From NCBI RefSeq assembly GCF_016446395.1, contig NZ_CP051168.1, positions 3,685,579 through 3,749,578 of the forward strand: 64,000 bases of DNA, read 5' to 3'. Source of the stretch: [Phormidium] sp. ETS-05. GTDB taxonomy: Bacteria; Cyanobacteriota; Cyanobacteriia; Cyanobacteriales; Laspinemataceae. Position numbers and translations under genes: made by a program. This document shows positions 22,991 through 44,089 of the stretch, one piece after another; positions within the stretch are counted from its first letter, which is position 1, and each line of letters opens with the position of its first letter. Under the pieces are notes generated by a model. The model saw nothing but the letters and a program-made list of their open reading frames with translations, had not been told where the DNA came from and did no database searches.

Positions 22991-23539
22991 CGATTGATTG
23001 TCTTAACCGGTCCGAGTGGGGTAGGAAAAGGCACCCTCGTAGGTTCTCTCCTCCAGCGTCATCCCGAGCTTTGTCTTTCGGTCTCAGCCACCACCCGATC
23101 GCCCCGTCCCGGAGAAATTCACGGCAAAAACTACTATTTTGTTGACCAGCAACGATTTCAAAAAATGATTGCCGCTGACGAACTCTTAGAATGGGCAGAA
23201 TTTGCCACCAACTACTACGGTACACCCAAAGCACCCGTAGAAAAACTTCTCGCCGAGGGCAAGTTTGTCTTACTAGAAATCGAACTCCAAGGCGCTCGCC
23301 AAGTGAGAAAAACTTTTCCCAACGCCCTGCAAATCTTTATTTTACCCCCCAGCGGAGAAGAATTAGAGCGGCGGATTCGCGGACGTGCCCAAGATTCTGA
23401 AGAAGCTATATCCCGCCGTCTCCAACGTGCCCGGGACGAGATTGCCGCGAAGAATGAGTTTGACATCCAAATCGTCAATGACGATTTAGAAACAGCTTTG
23501 GCAGAAATTGAAAAAGCTATTTTTTCGGTGGACAAGTAA
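22979..23539 (+). CDS. gmk: guanylate kinase
   Basis: [10 protein letters not shown]-loop, SATTR, and ...YYGTPK... motifs; 186 aa. The start codon lies inside the last GACAAATGAC repeat unit. Confidence 0.9.
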
Positions 23540-23884: not shown

Positions 23885-24060
23885 AATCAACTTTTGTCCT
23901 TAGTCATTTGTCCTTTGTCACTTGTCCTTAGTCCTTAGTCATTTGTCACTTGTCACTTGTCCCTTGTCATTTGTCACCAAAGGATAATTGACAATTATTA
24001 ATTATCAATTATCAAAGGACAAAAGACAAAGGACAAAGAACCAATGACCAATGATATTTA
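23885..24060. repeat. STRR heptamer arrays in inverted arrangement
   Basis: tgtccttagtcatttgtcctttgtcacttgtcc... / ...caaaggacaaaagacaaaggacaaagaaccaatgaccaatga. Confidence 0.8.
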
Positions 24061-28425: not shown

Positions 28426-29953
28426 TCAATCAATCTAGCTGCCACAGTGTGGCCTTTACCTACCACCCTCCCCTGTGGCTGGTATTGCCCAGTTGGGTTA
28501 GGCGCAGGCGAGGGGTTTTTCATGGCTGCAATTTTCATCGGAAAAATTTTTTACTGGCAGCCACAGACGGGGACGCCTGTGGCTAAGGGCAACCCAGCCG
28601 TCACAATCATCTTGAATATACTGTACAATCAGCACCTATAGTGCTAAGTGTACTGTCCCTGTTGGGATGAACTCTGCCCCAACATACAGTCTGTTTCGCC
28701 GCGACTGCCCACCGGGCGGCGGGGAAAAGCACTTCGCTGCATTTACAGACCCATCAGGCGGCTCCAGTTTGGGGCGCTTTGAGAGCAAACGGTTACAGCC
28801 ATCCTGTTACTACCGCCAGCCACGGGCAAAAGCGATTAGCCTTTTGGATGACCTAAATTGTACCACAACCACACCCTCTCCCCTGCCCTTAGTTTTTGGG
28901 GTCCAGAACAGATCTAGCCGGAAAATCACCCCCTATCTCTGCCTATAGCCAAATTATTGCCTCATCTCCTCCTAGCTCCCTGACAATTTAGTAATTTTTC
29001 CCGGTCACTATTGACGGCTAATTAATCGTCATCATCATGGGATTTTTTGCCACAAAATTTGGAGATAAAGTTGGTCATTCAACTAAGCTGTAAATAATTA
29101 TTGCATTTTTTACCTGGTACTTGGATACCCCGCGCAACAAATTTTAAAAAAAATTTGGCGGCTTTTAGAGCATAATATTGGCCGTACTTCTTATCCCATT
29201 GTAGCCATAGGGAGTTGTCGCCCGATGGATCTGCCCCCATTTCCACTATCTTACCCCCGCTTCCCACCCCTCTTTTGTCGCCACCCATCTCCCCAGACGA
29301 GTAATGGTGCTACAATTGCTCATTTGACAGGCTCTGAAAATGCTTTCCACTTTCTCTGGGGATGCCTCTGTTTGCTAAGCTGGTTTCCAGTTGACAATTC
29401 GCTATCGGAGATTTTAGATGCAGATATCTCCCGGGCTGCTTTGTGATGGTAGCTTGGTCTGGGCTCACTTGAGGGAGCGCCTCGGCGCGATCGTTCTGTG
29501 TTTCCGGTTTACTGTCCAGTCGGCAAACCATAGCCAAATGACTTCCCTGATTGCCAGCGCGGGACCTCACAGCCATTGGCTGAGACTGCCCTCGGAACTG
29601 GTGGGAGGCATTAGATTTACCAATCACCTTACCACCATTTCCAATGCTTCGCCCCCTTGGTGGTTCGGTTTTAGCCCGCCAGCGATATAATTGCATAGTT
29701 ACAACCGGCAACGAATCGAGAGAGAGAAGATTAGCGTCAACAAATCATAGACAGAACCATGCTAAGAAATCGTGACAAACACACAACCGCGTCATCCGAG
29801 GGTAGAAGCCTCTAGCCTTCAGGCGAATGGCGGTTTGGGGCTTACCCCTGTTGGAGATTTCGCCACGGGTAAACTCCAGTAAGATATTCAGGTAAGGCTT
29901 TCGGGGTTCAATTAGGTGTTGTTTTAGCTTTAGCAAAGAGGTGGAGGATTTCT

Positions 29954-30481: not shown

Positions 30482-30753
30482 GGAATGCTGGCAGGGGGTA
30501 ACAATAGAGATAGAGCGTCAAAAGAAAAATTTGCATTCACTGCCTCTTCCTTGACCATAAACCCCCTGGATTTTTTATGCCCTAGTTAATAGCGTTAAAT
30601 ATAGATGATTATGTCGATGATTTGAGTAAAAATTATGGATAGTTTAGACAATTATTAAATGATGAGCAAATAAAATTTATGCTAATCTGATAAGAAGAAT
30701 CAGATTGATTGTTGAATCAGCCAAAAGTTCCTATCAAAATAGACATTTTAGTT

Positions 30754-32870
30754 ATGACTAATCGCCTTGCCACAGCCCAAAGCCTCTACCTGCGCAAACA
30801 CGCACTAAACCCGATCGATTGGTACTCATGGAGCGATGAAGCCATAGAAACTGCCCGCCGAGAAAACAAACCGATATTCTTATCTATCGGTTATTCTAGC
30901 TGCCACTGGTGTACGGTTATGGAAGGGGAAGCCTTTTCTAACGAGTCGATCGCCCAGTACATGAATGCCAACTTCATCCCCATCAAAGTCGATCGGGAAG
31001 AAAGACCGGATTTAGACAGCATTTATATGCAGTCCCTGCAATTGATGACCGGTCAGGGTGGCTGGCCCCTAAATGTTTTCCTCTCCCCCGATGACCTCGT
31101 ACCTTTTTACGGCGGCACATATTTTCCCGTAGAGCCGCGTTATGGGCGTCCCGGCTTCTTACAACTGCTGCAAGCAATTCGCCGCTATTACGATGGGGAA
31201 AAAGGCAAGTTGCAAGCCTTTAAAGAAGAAATACTGGAATACTTGCACCAGGGAGCCGCTGTAGCTAAGGCGGAAGAGGTGGGGGCGACAAAAGATTTAC
31301 TGTGGCGGGGTTTGAATGTCAATACGGGAATAATTGCCCGCCAGACTCCCGGTCAGAGCTTCCCGATGATTCCCTATGCTCAATTGGTCCTCCAAGGTAG
31401 CCGATTAAACTTTGAGTCCAAATATGACTTGAAGCAAGCCAGCACCCAAAGGGGATTAGATTTGGCTACTGGTGGAATTTATGACCATGTGGGGGGAGGG
31501 TTTCACCGCTACACTGTCGACCCCACCTGGACGGTGCCTCACTTTGAAAAAATGCTCTATGACAATGGTCAAATTGTGGAGTATTTGGCGCAACTGTGGG
31601 GCACAGGGGTGCAAGAACCAGCGTTCGATCGGGCGATCGCTCTCACCGTCCAATGGCTCGAGCGAGAGATGACCGCACCATCCGGTTACTTCTACGCGGC
31701 TCAAGATGCGGACAGCTTCACCACTCCCGAAGCAGTGGAACCAGAAGAAGGGCACTTTTACGTCTGGACCCACACCGAACTAGAAGCCATCCTCACCCCG
31801 GAAGAGCTAAAAGCACTCCAAGAGGATTTTACTGTGACATCAGAGGGGAATTTTGAGAGCAGCAATGTCCTGCAGCGCCGGTCTACCTACCGCTTTCCCC
31901 CACCACAGAAGCGGCATTGACGAAAATGTTTCGGGTCCGCTACGGTATAGAACCAGAGGCAGGTGCTGTATTTCCCCCGGCTCGGAATAACCAGGAAGCC
32001 AAAACCGACAAATGGCCGGGACGAATTCCGCCGGTGACGGATACCAAGGCGATCGTCGCTTGGAATGCACTAATGATTTCCGGTTTGGCAAAAGCCGCCA
32101 GCGTTTTTAGTCGCCCCTCCTACCTAAAACTCGCCCTCCGAGCCGCCGACTTTATCTTAGAAAATCAGTGGGTAGATGGGCGAATGCACCGGCTCAACTA
32201 TGATGGTGTGCCAGCAGTACCGGGACAAGCGGAAGATTACTCCTTACTCATCAAAGCTCTCCTAGACTTGCACCAAGCCAGCTTGTCATTTCTGCACAAC
32301 CAATCAGATACTCTTGAGAATTCATCTCCATCCAAATGGTTAGAGCAAGCGGTGAAAGTGCAGGCAGAGTTTGACCAACACCTTTGGAGCGACGAGCTGG
32401 GGGGATATTTTAACACAGCCAAAGATAGTAGCAGCAGCGTGGGAGGATTGCCCCTACTGGTGCGGGAGCGCAGCTACACCGACAGTGCCATCCCCGCACC
32501 CAATGGGGTAGCAGCTACCAACCTGATGCGTTTAGCTTTACTCACGGAAAATCTGGAATATCTCGATCGGGCTTCTGCCACTTTGCAGGCTTTTCGCAGC
32601 ATTATGGAAGCCAGCCCCACCGCTTGTCCCACTTTATTTTCCGCCCTAGACTGGTATCAACATTGCACTTTAATTCGCACCAACCCAGACTTACTCGCAT
32701 CCCTGAGCGGGCAGTATTTGCCCACCGCTGTTTGTCAAAAAGCCGACGAACTGCCACCAGGAGCCGTGGGGTTAGTCTGCGAGGGACTTAGTTGCAAAGA
32801 ACCCGCCACCACTACAGAGCAGCTATTAGAACAGGTGTTAAATTATCAAACTAGGGAAGTTGATAATTGA
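30754..32870 (+). pseudogene. thioredoxin-domain protein of the YyaL/DUF255 family (N-terminal thioredoxin-like domain plus C-terminal six-hairpin glycosidase-like domain), split by a frameshift near 31882-31887
   Basis: ORF 30709-31920 carries the DUF255 block (WYSWSDEAIETARRENKPIFLSIGYSSCHWCTVMEGEAF). ORF 31917-32870 carries the downstream WNALMISGLAKAA block. The downstream frame is already open from 31857 (..VYLPLSPTTEAALTKMF..), so the two halves join if one base is inserted in gtctacctacc. Confidence 0.7.
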
Positions 32871-32940
32871 TAATTGATAATTGATAATTGATAATTGATA
32901 ATTGATAATTGTCAATTGTCAATTGTCAATTATCACCCCA
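32865..32940. repeat. heptamer array GATAATT x7 followed by GTCAATT x3
   Basis: gataattgataattgataattgataattgataattgataattgtcaattgtcaattgtcaattatc. Confidence 0.9.
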
Positions 32941-35278
32941 TCCCCTTGGGTTGGAGGGCAGCTTTGGGATAGGCAATGCGCTTGTGATGGAATTGTTGCC
33001 AGACGCGGACGAAAATTTCAGCAATTTTGGGCATTTCTTCCCGCTTCAGACCGGAATCAACGAGCTGATTGTCTTGCCAGCGAGCCCGGAGAATTTTATT
33101 AACCATATTGAGAGCTTCTTCAGGGGTGGCGTCTTGGAGACTGCGCAAAGCCGCTTCACAGGAATCAGCCAGCATCAGGATTGCCGTTTCCCGGGACTGA
33201 GGAATCGGGCCATCGTAGCGAAAATCCGACTCTTGCACCGGAGGCAGATTTAATTCGGCAGCGCGCTGCTGGGCTTGATGGTAGAAATAAGAAATCAGCA
33301 TCGTGCCCTGGTGTTCGGGGATAAATGCTTGAATTGCTTTCGGTAGGCGGCATTTTTTCGCCATTACCAGCCCTTCGGTGACGTGCTTTTTGATAATCTC
33401 GGCACTTTTGTAGGGGTCGTTAATTTCATCATGCTTGTTTGGTCCGCCCATCTGATTTTCGATAAAACCTAGGGGGTCGTGCATTTTGCCGATATCGTGG
33501 TATAGGGTGCCTGCTCGCACCAGTTCCACATTGCAACCGAGTTCTTTTGCCGCAGCTTCGGCGAGAGTGGCGACAAAGAGGGTGTGCTGGAATGTGCCCG
33601 GAGCTTCGGCAGCGAGCCGCTTCAGGGTGGGGCGATTTGGGTTAGAAAGTTCGGCGAGGCGCACCGGAGTAATTAAATCAAAGAGTTGTTCTAGATAGGG
33701 GCTAATTCCCAAAGCGATGACGCTCCAAGCTAAACCGGCTAAGCTCTGCAATGCTGCTGCTGCTAAGACGGCGTACCAGACGGAACCGGCGGTGGCGCTG
33801 AGAATAAAACTACCCACTAAGTGGACGACGCCTTGAGTCAGTCCTACCCCTAAGCCTAAAAATGCCAGTTCCTCGCGAGCCCGGGTTCGACCGGCGATCG
33901 CGCCGCCGACCAACCCCCCAGCCGCACTGGCGACAATATGCGTCACTTCGATATCCAAGCCGAGAGGCAGCAGTAGGGTGAGCAATGCCACCACCGTGGT
34001 TCCCAAGCCAGAGCCATAAAAGCTGCCCACCAACAAGCCGATCGCAGGCAAGCTAGTCCAAGGCACAGAAAGAGCCACCAGCAGGGGTGTACTGGTACTC
34101 AGAAGCAAAATCAGCAAATGGTCTCGCCGCCGGAGCCAATAGCGTCCCCGGTGGGGATTACAGAACCGCCGCTCCGCCAGCCAAAATATCCCCACAGCCA
34201 CAGATACACTGACTCCGAGCCCCAAAAGTCCTGTCCAGTTAACCCCCCGCTTACTCAAACCGAAATGGTCTAACAGCACAAAATCAGCTTGAGTAATCAC
34301 CTCCCCCTCACTGACGATTACTTCCCCCGCCTTAATCCGGATTTTGACGGTTTCCACCGCTTCGGCAGCTTGTTCGGCGCGAATCCGAGTAGCTTCGGGG
34401 TCTGGAGTGAGGTTGGGCTGGTCTAGAACTTCCAAGAGAATCTGAACCGCGATCGTCTGGGTTGATTCCGGTACTAAGGCTCGGACGTGAGCATTAATCG
34501 TGTTTTCCTGAATCTGTTTGGGCACTCCCGGCGCGATCCCCTGAATTCTGATCAGGGATGCAGCTTTCTCAATACCCTTCTTAGTGGCGGACCAATCCGC
34601 ATCAGATATATCGAGAAAGCTGGCTTGGTAGATGGTGGCTTGCTCGCTCGTCAAGAGGAGTTCCATCGCTTGCCCGTAGGCATTGCGGGCAGCAGTAATT
34701 TCATTAATCAGAGCCAATAGTTTTGCCGAGTTAGTTCTGGCGCGGTAGGCGCGCAGCTCTCGCTCGGCCTCCTGACCCGCCGCACCTAAAGGCTTATTTT
34801 GCCACACCCATTGCATCAAGACGGGCAGAGCCGAGCTGGCATCTGGGGTGGTTTTGGGGGCGGTATTTGGGGGTAGTTTTTCATTCTTAGCAGCCAGCAC
34901 TGCCAGCCATTCCCACGGGTGGGCGCGGCGCAGGTAACGTTGAGTGCGCAGGGAAAGGATTTCTGTGGAGATAAAAGGAATTGAGCCAGCTTTCACCCGG
35001 AGACGATCGCCATAAGCTAACAACCGCTGTAGTTCTTTTTCCATCAAGTCATTAACAGCATTATCCATCATCAGCATCGGTACAGCGCCGACGCGAGCCG
35101 CTTGGCGATTTTCTTCCGTGGTTTTTTCATCCCTGACTTCGGCTTCTTCTGGGGCGTGGATAGTAGCTGGAGCCCTTGTTCCCACATTTAATTGTGGTTG
35201 GTTGTAGAAGCGATTGCCAATGGCAGCAGTGAGACAAACCACTACCACCACCAAAGACACCGGTGATGCTTTGCCCAC
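32933..35278 (-). CDS. 7TM receptor with intracellular HD hydrolase (7TMR-HD / PgpH-like HDIG phosphohydrolase)
   Basis: C-terminal HD domain (TFQHTLFVATLAEAAAKELG...LYHDIGKM...), seven predicted transmembrane helices in the middle, and a large N-terminal extracytoplasmic domain after the first helix VSLVVVVVCLTAAIG. The N-terminus is uncertain: the track ORF extends to 35692 through low-complexity TETTETTET. I chose the GTG at 35278, just upstream of the first helix. Confidence 0.7.
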   Translation of the reverse strand: MGKASPVSLVVVVVCLTAAIGNRFYNQPQLNVGTRAPATIHAPEEAEVRDEKTTEENRQAARVGAVPMLMMDNAVNDLMEKELQRLLAYGDRLRVKAGSIPFISTEILSLRTQRYLRRAHPWEWLAVLAAKNEKLPPNTAPKTTPDASSALPVLMQWVWQNKPLGAAGQEAERELRAYRARTNSAKLLALINEITAARNAYGQAMELLLTSEQATIYQASFLDISDADWSATKKGIEKAASLIRIQGIAPGVPKQIQENTINAHVRALVPESTQTIAVQILLEVLDQPNLTPDPEATRIRAEQAAEAVETVKIRIKAGEVIVSEGEVITQADFVLLDHFGLSKRGVNWTGLLGLGVSVSVAVGIFWLAERRFCNPHRGRYWLRRRDHLLILLLSTSTPLLVALSVPWTSLPAIGLLVGSFYGSGLGTTVVALLTLLLPLGLDIEVTHIVASAAGGLVGGAIAGRTRAREELAFLGLGVGLTQGVVHLVGSFILSATAGSVWYAVLAAAALQSLAGLAWSVIALGISPYLEQLFDLITPVRLAELSNPNRPTLKRLAAEAPGTFQHTLFVATLAEAAAKELGCNVELVRAGTLYHDIGKMHDPLGFIENQMGGPNKHDEINDPYKSAEIIKKHVTEGLVMAKKCRLPKAIQAFIPEHQGTMLISYFYHQAQQRAAELNLPPVQESDFRYDGPIPQSRETAILMLADSCEAALRSLQDATPEEALNMVNKILRARWQDNQLVDSGLKREEMPKIAEIFVRVWQQFHHKRIAYPKAALQPKGMG

Positions 35279-35580
35279 CCTGACAGTGGCACAGTTAGGA
35301 CCTTTCTGGCCTTTGGCGGGTTCAGGTGCATCCCCCCCTACCCCCCCGATCGTCGGGGAGGGGGATGCAGACCGATGGCTACGCCGACCCTGAGTGTCGG
35401 TTCTGGCGGAGGAAGATGGTTTCCTCACAATGCTCACCTCGGGAGTAGCCTGTCCCGTCAGCAAATTTTGCCCAGAAGGTTCGGCGGTTTGTGCGATGGC
35501 TACGCCGACCCTGAGTGTCGGGCGCCGAGATGTTGTCGGTTGACCATCAACGCCTAGAGGTGGAAGGAGGCGCCCTACGG

Positions 35581-35640
35581 TTGTTTCTGCTGTTTCTGTT
35601 GTTTCTGTTGTTTCTGTTGTTTCTGTTGTTTCTGTTTTTG
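35581..35640. repeat. 9-bp tandem repeat (TTGTTTCTG x6)
   Basis: ctgtttctgttgtttctgttgtttctgttgtttctgttgtttctg. A 27-bp direct repeat, GATGGCTACGCCGACCCTGAGTGTCGG, occurs at 35374-35400 and 35495-35521. Confidence 0.85.
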
Positions 35641-35814
35641 GGGGGCGCCGCCATTGTTCGAGCAGCTTTGCGAGCGACGGAATGGTTTTCATAGTGACAG
35701 CATTTCCAGACTTGTAGGCGCTCTCAGAGGCTGCGCCGGACTTAGGGTTGCGAAAGCCTCAAGCTACTATAGGCACTATTATAGAGGCACTGCTCCTTTG
35801 TGATTTGTGATCAG

Positions 35815-37009: not shown

Positions 37010-37180
37010 CAATTGTTGTCAATTTATAGATAATATTGGTCAAAAGTCCTTGGTCAAAAGTCCTTGATTAAAAGTCCTTGGTCAAAAGTCCTTCTGCCTT
37101 GGGACTGCAGGACAAGGGACTAAGGACAAGTGACTAAGAACTTGGGACTTAGGACTTGGGACTAATGACCAATGACAAAA
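37010..37180. repeat. 14-bp tandem repeat GGTCAAAAGTCCTT x4 followed by GGGACTA/GGACTTG heptamer arrays
   Basis: ggtcaaaagtccttggtcaaaagtccttgattaaaagtccttggtcaaaagtcctt... Confidence 0.85.
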
Positions 37181-38489: not shown

Positions 38490-38575
38490 TGGTCATTTGT
38501 CTAAAGGTCACTTGTCCCTTGTCCCTTGTCCTTTGTCACTTGTATAATGACAAAGAACAAGGGACAAGTGACATA
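38490..38575. repeat. STRR heptamer palindrome
   Basis: gtcacttgtcccttgtcccttgtcctttgtcacttgtataatgacaaagaacaagggacaagtgacat. Confidence 0.8.
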
Positions 38576-39583: not shown

Positions 39584-39657
39584 CGGGATGTAGCGCAGCT
39601 TGGTAGCGCGCCTGCTTTGGGAGCAGGATGTCGCAGGTTCAAATCCTGTCATCCCGA
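39584..39657 (+). tRNA. tRNA-Pro (anticodon UGG)
   Basis: A cloverleaf can be drawn: acceptor CGGGATG/CATCCCG, D-arm GCGC-AGCTTGGTA-GCGC, anticodon stem CCTGC/GCAGG with loop TTTGGGA (UGG at positions 34-36), T-arm GCAGG-TTCAAAT-CCTGT, discriminator A. CCA is not encoded. Confidence 0.85.
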
Positions 39658-43048: not shown

Positions 43049-44089
43049 ATGATGATTGTTGATTTTGTGGGATATCCTGCGTTAATTATGGATTTGAGCA
43101 ACTGGGTAGCGCTGGCAGTTGGAATCGGAATGGGGCTGGGGAGCAGTTGGGTTCGGCGGCGTCCTCCTGTGGTCGCTCCCGCCACCATAGAAGTGCCACC
43201 GGTGACAGGGAATAGCTCAGAAGCCGAATCGAGCGATTCTGTGGTTGCTCCCGCCACCATAGAAGTGCCACCGGTGACAGGGAATAGCTCAGAAGCGGAA
43301 TTAATCCGGTCTTTAGAGGCTGAGCTGGCTCAAACCAGAGCCGCTTACTATCTGGCTAGCCAGATGAGTAAGTTCAAAGGGGGGTTTCTGGCGCGGGTGT
43401 CTCACGAGCTACGATCGCCCATTAATGGTCTGATTGGTTCTCATCAGTTAATTCTCTCGGACCTGTGCGACGACCCCGCTGAGGAGCGGGAAGTTTTGGC
43501 CCAAGCGAATCAATCAGCCATGAAAATGATTGATATGCTCGATCGGGTTCTGAATGTCGCCAGAACTGAGGATGGCAGAAACCCCATGAACATCCAAGCC
43601 TTATCCCTAGCGCAAATTTTCGAGGAAGTACATTACTTGACCGCGATGCAAGCGGCAAATCGTAACATTCCTCTCAACGTGATTGTGCCCCAACCCGATA
43701 TCTATGTCCTTGCTGATGAAGACTGGCTCAAACAGGTCCTGGTAAATCTTGTAGAAACCGGGATTACCCCTTTCGGCAATGAGGCTATTTCTGTGACTGC
43801 CCAAGGGGCGGCGGATGGACAAACTGCCTACATCACCATTGATGCCGAGTTTCCAGCAGAATTTAAGAGCGAACCCTTAGATTTGCTGCAAAAAGAACTG
43901 CCAAATGACCGCCTGGTGGAAAACAGCGAGCTGTCATTAGGTTTGACCATGCTGATGAACCAGACGGTTTTGGAACTGATGAAGGGAAGCCTAGAAATCC
44001 AAGGATCATTACCCGGAGAGGGGAGTGAGGCACTCAGTCGGATTCAATGCTTGCTCCCACTGGCGACCCCACAGCCGCCAGGGGACTGA
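43049..44089 (+). CDS. histidine-kinase-like protein with an intact HisKA phospho-acceptor motif but a degenerate ATP-binding domain (possible pseudokinase); contains an internal 72-bp tandem duplication
   Basis: H-box FLARVSHELRSPINGLIG. The region where N/G1/G2 boxes should be (QVLVNLVETGITPFGNEAISV...ITIDAEFPAEF...SLGLTML) has no DxGxG or GxGxG. Transmembrane helix near the N-terminus. The duplicated peptide VVAPATIEVPPVTGNSSEAE is encoded by 43169-43240 and 43241-43312. Confidence 0.5.
   Translation: MMIVDFVGYPALIMDLSNWVALAVGIGMGLGSSWVRRRPPVVAPATIEVPPVTGNSSEAESSDSVVAPATIEVPPVTGNSSEAELIRSLEAELAQTRAAYYLASQMSKFKGGFLARVSHELRSPINGLIGSHQLILSDLCDDPAEEREVLAQANQSAMKMIDMLDRVLNVARTEDGRNPMNIQALSLAQIFEEVHYLTAMQAANRNIPLNVIVPQPDIYVLADEDWLKQVLVNLVETGITPFGNEAISVTAQGAADGQTAYITIDAEFPAEFKSEPLDLLQKELPNDRLVENSELSLGLTMLMNQTVLELMKGSLEIQGSLPGEGSEALSRIQCLLPLATPQPPGD

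Follow-up and report, generated by a model that had tools for sequence, protein, structure and literature searches.

Does the region from 30709 to 32870 encode two proteins or one, and if it is one, does the interruption belong to the organism or to the sequence record? Two overlapping open reading frames are found there in the window, i.e., the whole stretch of 64,000 nucleotides of [Phormidium] sp. ETS-05 that was analysed. The first-pass annotation had regarded them as the halves of one protein of about 700 aa from the YyaL/DUF255 family, separated by a frameshift of a single base. The features on which the argument turns are the following:

30709 (TTG) or 30754 (ATG) to 31920, plus strand: ORF1, the upstream part; ATG 30754 is the start used by homologs.
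30754 to 31884, plus strand: N-terminal in-frame part of the YyaL/SSP411-family gene, codons 1-377, MTNRLAT...NVLQRRS, about 99% identical to residues 1-377 of the homolog P0122.
30757 to 31245, plus strand: thioredoxin-like DUF255 domain, Pfam PF03190 Thioredox_DsbH, residues 2-164.
30901 to 30912, plus strand: CHWC (CxxC-type) motif of the thioredoxin-like domain, residues 50-53, read as tgc cac tgg tgt.
31857 to 31920, plus strand: 64 nt open in the upstream as well as in the downstream (-1) frame.
31885 to 31920, plus strand: tail of ORF1 read out of frame, TYRFPPPQKRH, with the premature stop TGA at 31918-31920; no homolog has a counterpart of this tail.
31886 to 31890, plus strand: the lesion, CCTAC (5 nt) in place of the relatives' ATGGCT (6 nt), from alignments A1 and A2.
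31893 to 32870, plus strand: the gene's C-terminal part, read in the -1 frame, LSPTTEAALTKMF...QTREVDN and stop, with candidate starts TTG 31917 and ATG 31926.
31917 (TTG) or 31926 (ATG) to 32870, plus strand: ORF2, the downstream part, in the -1 frame with respect to ORF1.
32860 to 32935, no strand assigned: heptamer tandem repeats, TTGATAA x7.4 followed by AATTGTC x4 (Tandem Repeats Finder).

The first part of the question has a plain answer: the two ORFs are the N-terminal and C-terminal parts of one YyaL/SSP411-family protein of about 705 aa. In ORF1 the PF03190 domain is matched with an E-value of 1e-70 (hmmscan; 237 bits against a cut-off of 27, profile positions 1-162 of 163). The sequence SSCHWCTVME occupies residues 48-57, and C50, H51, W52 and C53 are invariant in an alignment of 25 sequences (A3). 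The N-termini of the homologs, MTNRLA..., agree with a start at ATG 30754. ORF2 by itself has no Pfam match, and all NCBIfam matches are sub-threshold and limited to thioredoxin-like models. An identification as DsbH, the stand-alone periplasmic disulfide reductase (NF043050), was considered and rejected: 24 bits are scored against an equivalog cut-off of 190, and the fold alone is shared.

The unity of the two ORFs is apparent when both are aligned with P0122. They are collinear with this protein along its length, residues 1-377 at 98-99% identity and, in the frame of ORF2, residues 381-701 at 98% identity (314/321). The first-pass proposal that a single inserted base restores the frame holds as well, as one base added anywhere from 31857 to 31919 produces a single, uninterrupted frame of 705 codons. 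The match to one split family protein is far beyond chance. Domain, motif and whole-length collinearity are those of the family; an uninterrupted single polypeptide is not encoded. The change of frame at 31885-31892 and the premature TGA at 31918-31920 thus make the locus a disrupted family member at the DNA level. The ancestral state presumably was one single-chain yyaL/SSP411-family gene that encoded an N-terminal thioredoxin-like domain with the CHWC motif, followed by a large helical domain. The literature found on the family consists of work on mammalian SSP411/SPATA20 only and contains nothing on a bacterial function.

Is the gene split elsewhere? At the nucleotide level the related loci are 96.7% (L083 and L084), 92% (L001) and 90% (L085, L086 and L087) identical to the window; L083 and L084 are one organism assembled twice, and L085 and L087 are likewise one organism. 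A relative that is 98.2% identical at the 5' end of the locus is contained in SRR24236066. The relatives' loci share the gene order of the window: upstream lies a GNAT acetyltransferase gene, downstream a 7TMR-HD gene in convergent orientation. L083, L084, L001, L085 and L087 all read AAT GGC TCG/TCA at the junction and none is split there. The comparison with orthologs that the first-pass annotation had recommended, with a natural split at the same point as the result that would have spoken against the frameshift, yielded closest relatives which are unsplit throughout. These relatives came from a look-up of the 90% cluster of the best match, which has five members: three are intact, and the short ones are the window's two ORFs only, i.e., P0124 (403 aa) and P0123 (314 aa), which are identical to them letter for letter. 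Intact are P0122 (707 aa, from a metagenome-assembled genome labelled Oscillatoriaceae cyanobacterium, GCA_054682715.1), P0121 (703 aa, labelled Planktothricoides sp. SpSt-374 or Oscillatoriaceae cyanobacterium M33_DOE_052) and P0001 (706 aa). A scan of genome contigs was dominated by universal motifs such as CHWCTVME, and the closest match it returned was 69% identical.

The same picture emerges at larger evolutionary distances. When the repaired protein was used as query, 8000 candidates were scored at E <= 1e-10. The best 120 of these 8000 are all single chains of 686-718 aa with a query coverage of 97-100%, mostly from Microcoleus and related filamentous cyanobacteria, and carry the source names "thioredoxin domain-containing protein" or "YyaL (SSP411 family)". 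Together with the single chain of PDB 7TKV they corroborate the earlier statement that the family is normally a single polypeptide. In an exhaustive search of 1.84 billion cluster representatives the best 150 matches contained no stand-alone C-terminal half starting at the junction; a natural split was defined by a pairing of query residue 1-5 with protein residue 1-10, and no match had such a pairing. The short matches to the C-terminal ORF are metagenomic fragments with scattered boundaries. A scan of JGI metagenomes for the junction, in which a spacer of either 8 or 9 nt was allowed, found the intact 9-nt allele only.

The surroundings of the gene show some features of their own. The heptamer repeats at 32860-32935 begin inside the last YyaL codons, and the stop codon of the gene is part of them. 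Beyond ...QTR, all four relatives differ in the C-terminus and in the intergenic DNA, and L085 has different, G-rich repeats. Short tandem repeats are common in filamentous cyanobacteria, and the window's intergenic heptamer-type arrays resemble them (GACAAAG, TTATCAA and similar units, at 23927-24040, 24656, 37107-37151 and 38518-38562); L083 has other copy numbers and units in these arrays than the window. A 9-nt tandem repeat, GTTGTTTCT x6.3, is located at 35580-35636 within the 5' end of the 7TMR-HD gene (32933-35692, minus strand) and encodes TETTETTETTET...; the N-terminal region of this gene has many in-frame indels compared with L083. Further downstream, an ORF of 346 aa (43049-44089) contains a HisKA domain at residues 110-176 and no HATPase_c match at E <= 0.001; this could be a histidine kinase in divergent or truncated form.

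What precisely happened at the junction? The upstream frame ends ...NVLQRRSTYRFPPPQKRH at its stop codon and the downstream frame reads ...PVYLPLSPTTEAALTKMF..., exactly the texts given in the first-pass annotation, and the downstream frame is, as claimed there, open from 31857, directly after the TGA at 31854-31856. The assembled text of the window across the lesion is TCTACCTACCGCTT. Aligned codon by codon, the window has TCT ACC TAC -CG CTT TCC CCC ACC where the relatives have TCT AAT GGC TCG/TCA CTT TCC CCC ACC, which encodes S-N-G-S-L-S-P-T. Clearly, this is a net loss of one base and not a plain deletion, as 5 nt replace 6 nt. The loss of one base had been correctly recognized at first pass; its position, placed at 31882-31887, has to be moved slightly downstream, because in the DNA alignment with four relatives the missing base falls within 31885-31892. 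No sequence differs in the length of the neighbouring C5 run (31897-31901), and the lesion lies outside any homopolymer.

A slippage-prone repeat, ctacctacc, had been put forward as one possible origin. This repeat is absent from every relative, all of which have CTAATGGCTC at this position; hence it is a product of the change and not a substrate for slippage. Moreover, slippage of a 4-nt unit would change the length by 4 nt and not by 1, and a slippage origin is thus unsupported. A templated origin from a quasi-palindrome was also considered and discarded as not significant. The inverted repeat in question, 31876-31896 / 32162-32182, comprises 21 nt with 76% complementarity at a distance of 265 nt. 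Its downstream arm contains the complement of TCTACCCAC, to be compared with the new TCTACCTAC, with one mismatch in the critical block, and 600 nt contain nine comparable chance pairs, this one included. Within the window the 16-mer around the lesion occurs only once. Rfam identifies a tRNA at 39584-39657 as the only match in the window and nothing near the lesion.

On the reading favoured here, the change is a replacement of ATGGCT by CCTAC in a variable surface loop, codons 378-380, by which this genome would have lost a net one base. Translation from ATG 30754 would then produce 377 native residues and 11 aberrant ones (TYRFPPPQKRH) and would terminate at 31918-31920; the remaining, approximately 320 codons would be intact, yet out of frame. 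Among the homologs the loop reads SNGS, HSEV, HPGR or KQGQ. According to an AlphaFold2 model of P0001 the junction is situated in a coil between a strand and a helix; the model was calculated with 25 close homologs, is of low confidence (mean pLDDT 55, pTM 0.56), and its local secondary structure alone was used. A search with the 81-aa end of ORF1 including the aberrant tail returned 5 candidates only, and no second carrier of the tail was among them.

The state of the sequence beyond the break bears on its age. Compared with L083, the window has a dN/dS ratio of 0.07 in the N-terminal half and of 0.19 in the C-terminal half, and among the intact relatives the C-terminal half has values of 0.19-0.25. 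Ratios of 0.07-0.25 signify strong purifying selection on the gene in all relatives. With L085 and L001 as outgroups, the changes in the C-terminal half were assigned to branches: the window branch has 8 that are synonymous and 4 that are non-synonymous, and the counts on the L083 branch are identical. Neutral evolution would make about 76% of the changes non-synonymous, and 4 or fewer out of 12 would then arise with a probability of 0.002. Thus, neither the ratios nor the branch counts show any sign of relaxed selection or of further decay downstream of the break. The C-terminal half has spent nearly all of its history under selection, and consequently the lesion is either very recent, or artefactual, or harmless.

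We lean, if only slightly, towards the first of these possibilities, i.e., a real, very recent and lineage-specific mutation, a pseudogene in the making. The base would then be truly missing from the organism's DNA and the gene would hence be inactive. The usual marks of a pseudogene are present in part: the gene is disrupted in comparison with intact orthologs, and relaxation downstream is absent, a combination which, if this is a pseudogene, fits only a very young lesion. The overall quality of the record speaks for a real mutation. Over 22 kb, 19 of 20 syntenic genes match the L083 proteins at full length in one frame, and of the 16 homopolymers of at least 7 nt inside ORFs, 15 leave the frame undisturbed. 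Isolated 1-nt indels with respect to L083 are intergenic, with two exceptions, the YyaL lesion and one near 28721 which falls in an uncorroborated ORF of 93 aa. This predominance in non-coding DNA is the pattern of evolutionary differences and not of random errors.

Compensated +1/-1 indel pairs, 3-4 nt apart, are also observed in coding regions when the window is compared with L083, at 20971/20975 in an NFACT-domain gene and at 23044/23047 in gmk, and here the frame is restored within one or two codons. With clustered changes and compensated indels in other genes, a multi-base change of the kind seen at the YyaL junction is not exotic in these lineages. The YyaL change stands out solely by a net length that is not divisible by three.

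The strongest competitor of a real mutation is an error of assembly or consensus, which we rate as quite possible, though somewhat below an even chance. The organism's gene would be intact, with a loop such as ACC TAC CCG or ACC TAC TCG, and one base would have been dropped during assembly or polishing; in that case the loop substitutions would represent true divergence within the frame. The lack of relaxed selection downstream is the picture expected of an artefact, and the universal conservation of the gene, intact in all relatives and in the best 120 homologs, points in the same direction. If the true loop were ACC TAC CCG, a simple miscall of CCC as CC would generate the observed text. Against this, the site offers at most a run of CC or CCC and no long homopolymer, and the indel error rate of the record appears low, judged by the homopolymers and syntenic genes counted above; the mostly non-coding location of the isolated indels likewise speaks against an error.

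Further support for an error comes from a second one-base frameshift, 26 kb away. An RTX-repeat ORF (57555-58214) and a Calx-beta ORF (58130-59272), the frame of which is open from 58067, correspond to a single protein of 548 aa in a 94%-identical relative (P0127). The window reads ATCTTTTT-TTGCAA, with a T7 run at 58125-58131, and the relative reads ATCTTTTTCCTGCAA; one T added to the T7 run restores ...GRDIFFLQKKFGNPTAE.... Both lesions are deletions. Two one-base deletions in about 60 ORFs of at least 90 aa exceed what real pseudogenes of a free-living cyanobacterium would lead one to expect in a clean assembly. The chromosome record is a single contig of 6.29 Mb, from which a long-read assembly may be deduced.

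A different proposition is that the break is real and does no harm. A functional two-chain protein would consist of an N-terminal product of 388 aa and a C-terminal product of 314-317 aa which assemble non-covalently, the latter re-initiated at TTG 31917, overlapping the TGA, or at ATG 31926, 5 nt after it. We consider such a protein very unlikely. A shade less probable still is the full sequence of events in which the break is real and tolerated, termination and re-initiation take place at TTGA or at the nearby ATG, and the halves reassemble into an active protein. It is true that the candidate starts overlap the stop or lie almost next to it, that the break is in a variable loop with the junction in a coil of the low-confidence model, and that the C-terminal ORF is undecayed; the undecayed state, however, is equally well explained by a young lesion. 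No relative is split, and the best 150 matches contain no separate C-terminal half beginning at the junction. Neither product would contain residues 378-389/391 in the correct frame. Among these residues are E386 and L389, which are invariant, and L381 and S382, which are nearly so (in P0001 numbering E384, L387, L379 and S380), and without these conserved residues in frame a working two-piece protein is unlikely. In addition, direct reading reveals no evident Shine-Dalgarno-like sequence upstream of 31917 or 31926. If the split were indeed tolerated, it would be a natural experiment demonstrating that the YyaL/SSP411 family can be split at the loop of codons 378-380.

Scarcely credible, finally, is a restoration of the full-length protein by programmed -1 ribosomal frameshifting or transcriptional slippage: the geometry is right, with a downstream frame at -1, an overlap of 64 nt and one single-tRNA re-pairing site, C CCA at 31899-31902, that would give a product of normal length, yet the zero frame contains no X XXY YYZ heptamer within 31857-31920, the 121 nt downstream fold no better than shuffled sequences (minimum free energy -34.8 against a mean of -34.2 kcal/mol, z = -0.16), transcriptional slippage would lack the A or T run it needs, C5 being the longest run, the shift is not conserved, since the relatives have this C5 run too and yet a single frame for the protein, and slipping at the C run would put other residues in place of the nearly invariant L and S. 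Lacking heptamer, downstream RNA structure and conservation, programmed frameshifting is unsupported.

For the annotation this means one frameshifted gene, or a corrected one should the reads reveal an error, and not two proteins. The two halves have already entered the public protein collection as separate entries of 403 aa and 314 aa. The YyaL site and the T7 run at 58125-58131 together provide a useful check on the indel quality of the record. New insight into the bacterial function of the YyaL/SSP411 family is not gained.

How does the locus compare with known systems? With YyaL/SSP411 (SPATA20) proteins of the COG1331 type it shares the PF03190 domain, the CHWC motif, a length of about 705 codons and the same gene neighbourhood as in the relatives, and the cyanobacterial members are collinear with the window gene at 67-98% identity. 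The difference is that the frame of the window gene is broken after codon 377, whereas every other member examined is a single polypeptide. This includes a solved structure, PDB 7TKV chain A ('Thioredox_DsbH domain-containing protein', 668 aa), which aligns with residues 2-515 of the repaired protein at an E-value of 2.7e-93. The alignment passes straight through the junction (...GNWEGKNILNRLHAAAETPTPP...), i.e., 7TKV is one continuous chain exactly where the window gene is interrupted.

Genes with a programmed -1 frameshift are exemplified by dnaX, the IS3-family transposases and copA. As in these, two overlapping ORFs in the 0 and -1 frames encode one protein in the window; in contrast to these, slippery heptamer, stimulatory structure and a conserved arrangement are missing. 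The closest counterparts are the frameshifted bacterial pseudogenes that are routinely flagged, in which the same kind of one-base break causes two partial ORFs to be called separately. The locus is an everyday case of a frameshifted gene or a candidate pseudogene, familiar in kind and no new gene arrangement; from the usual representatives of this class it is set apart by a break that is unusually fresh, with no further decay.
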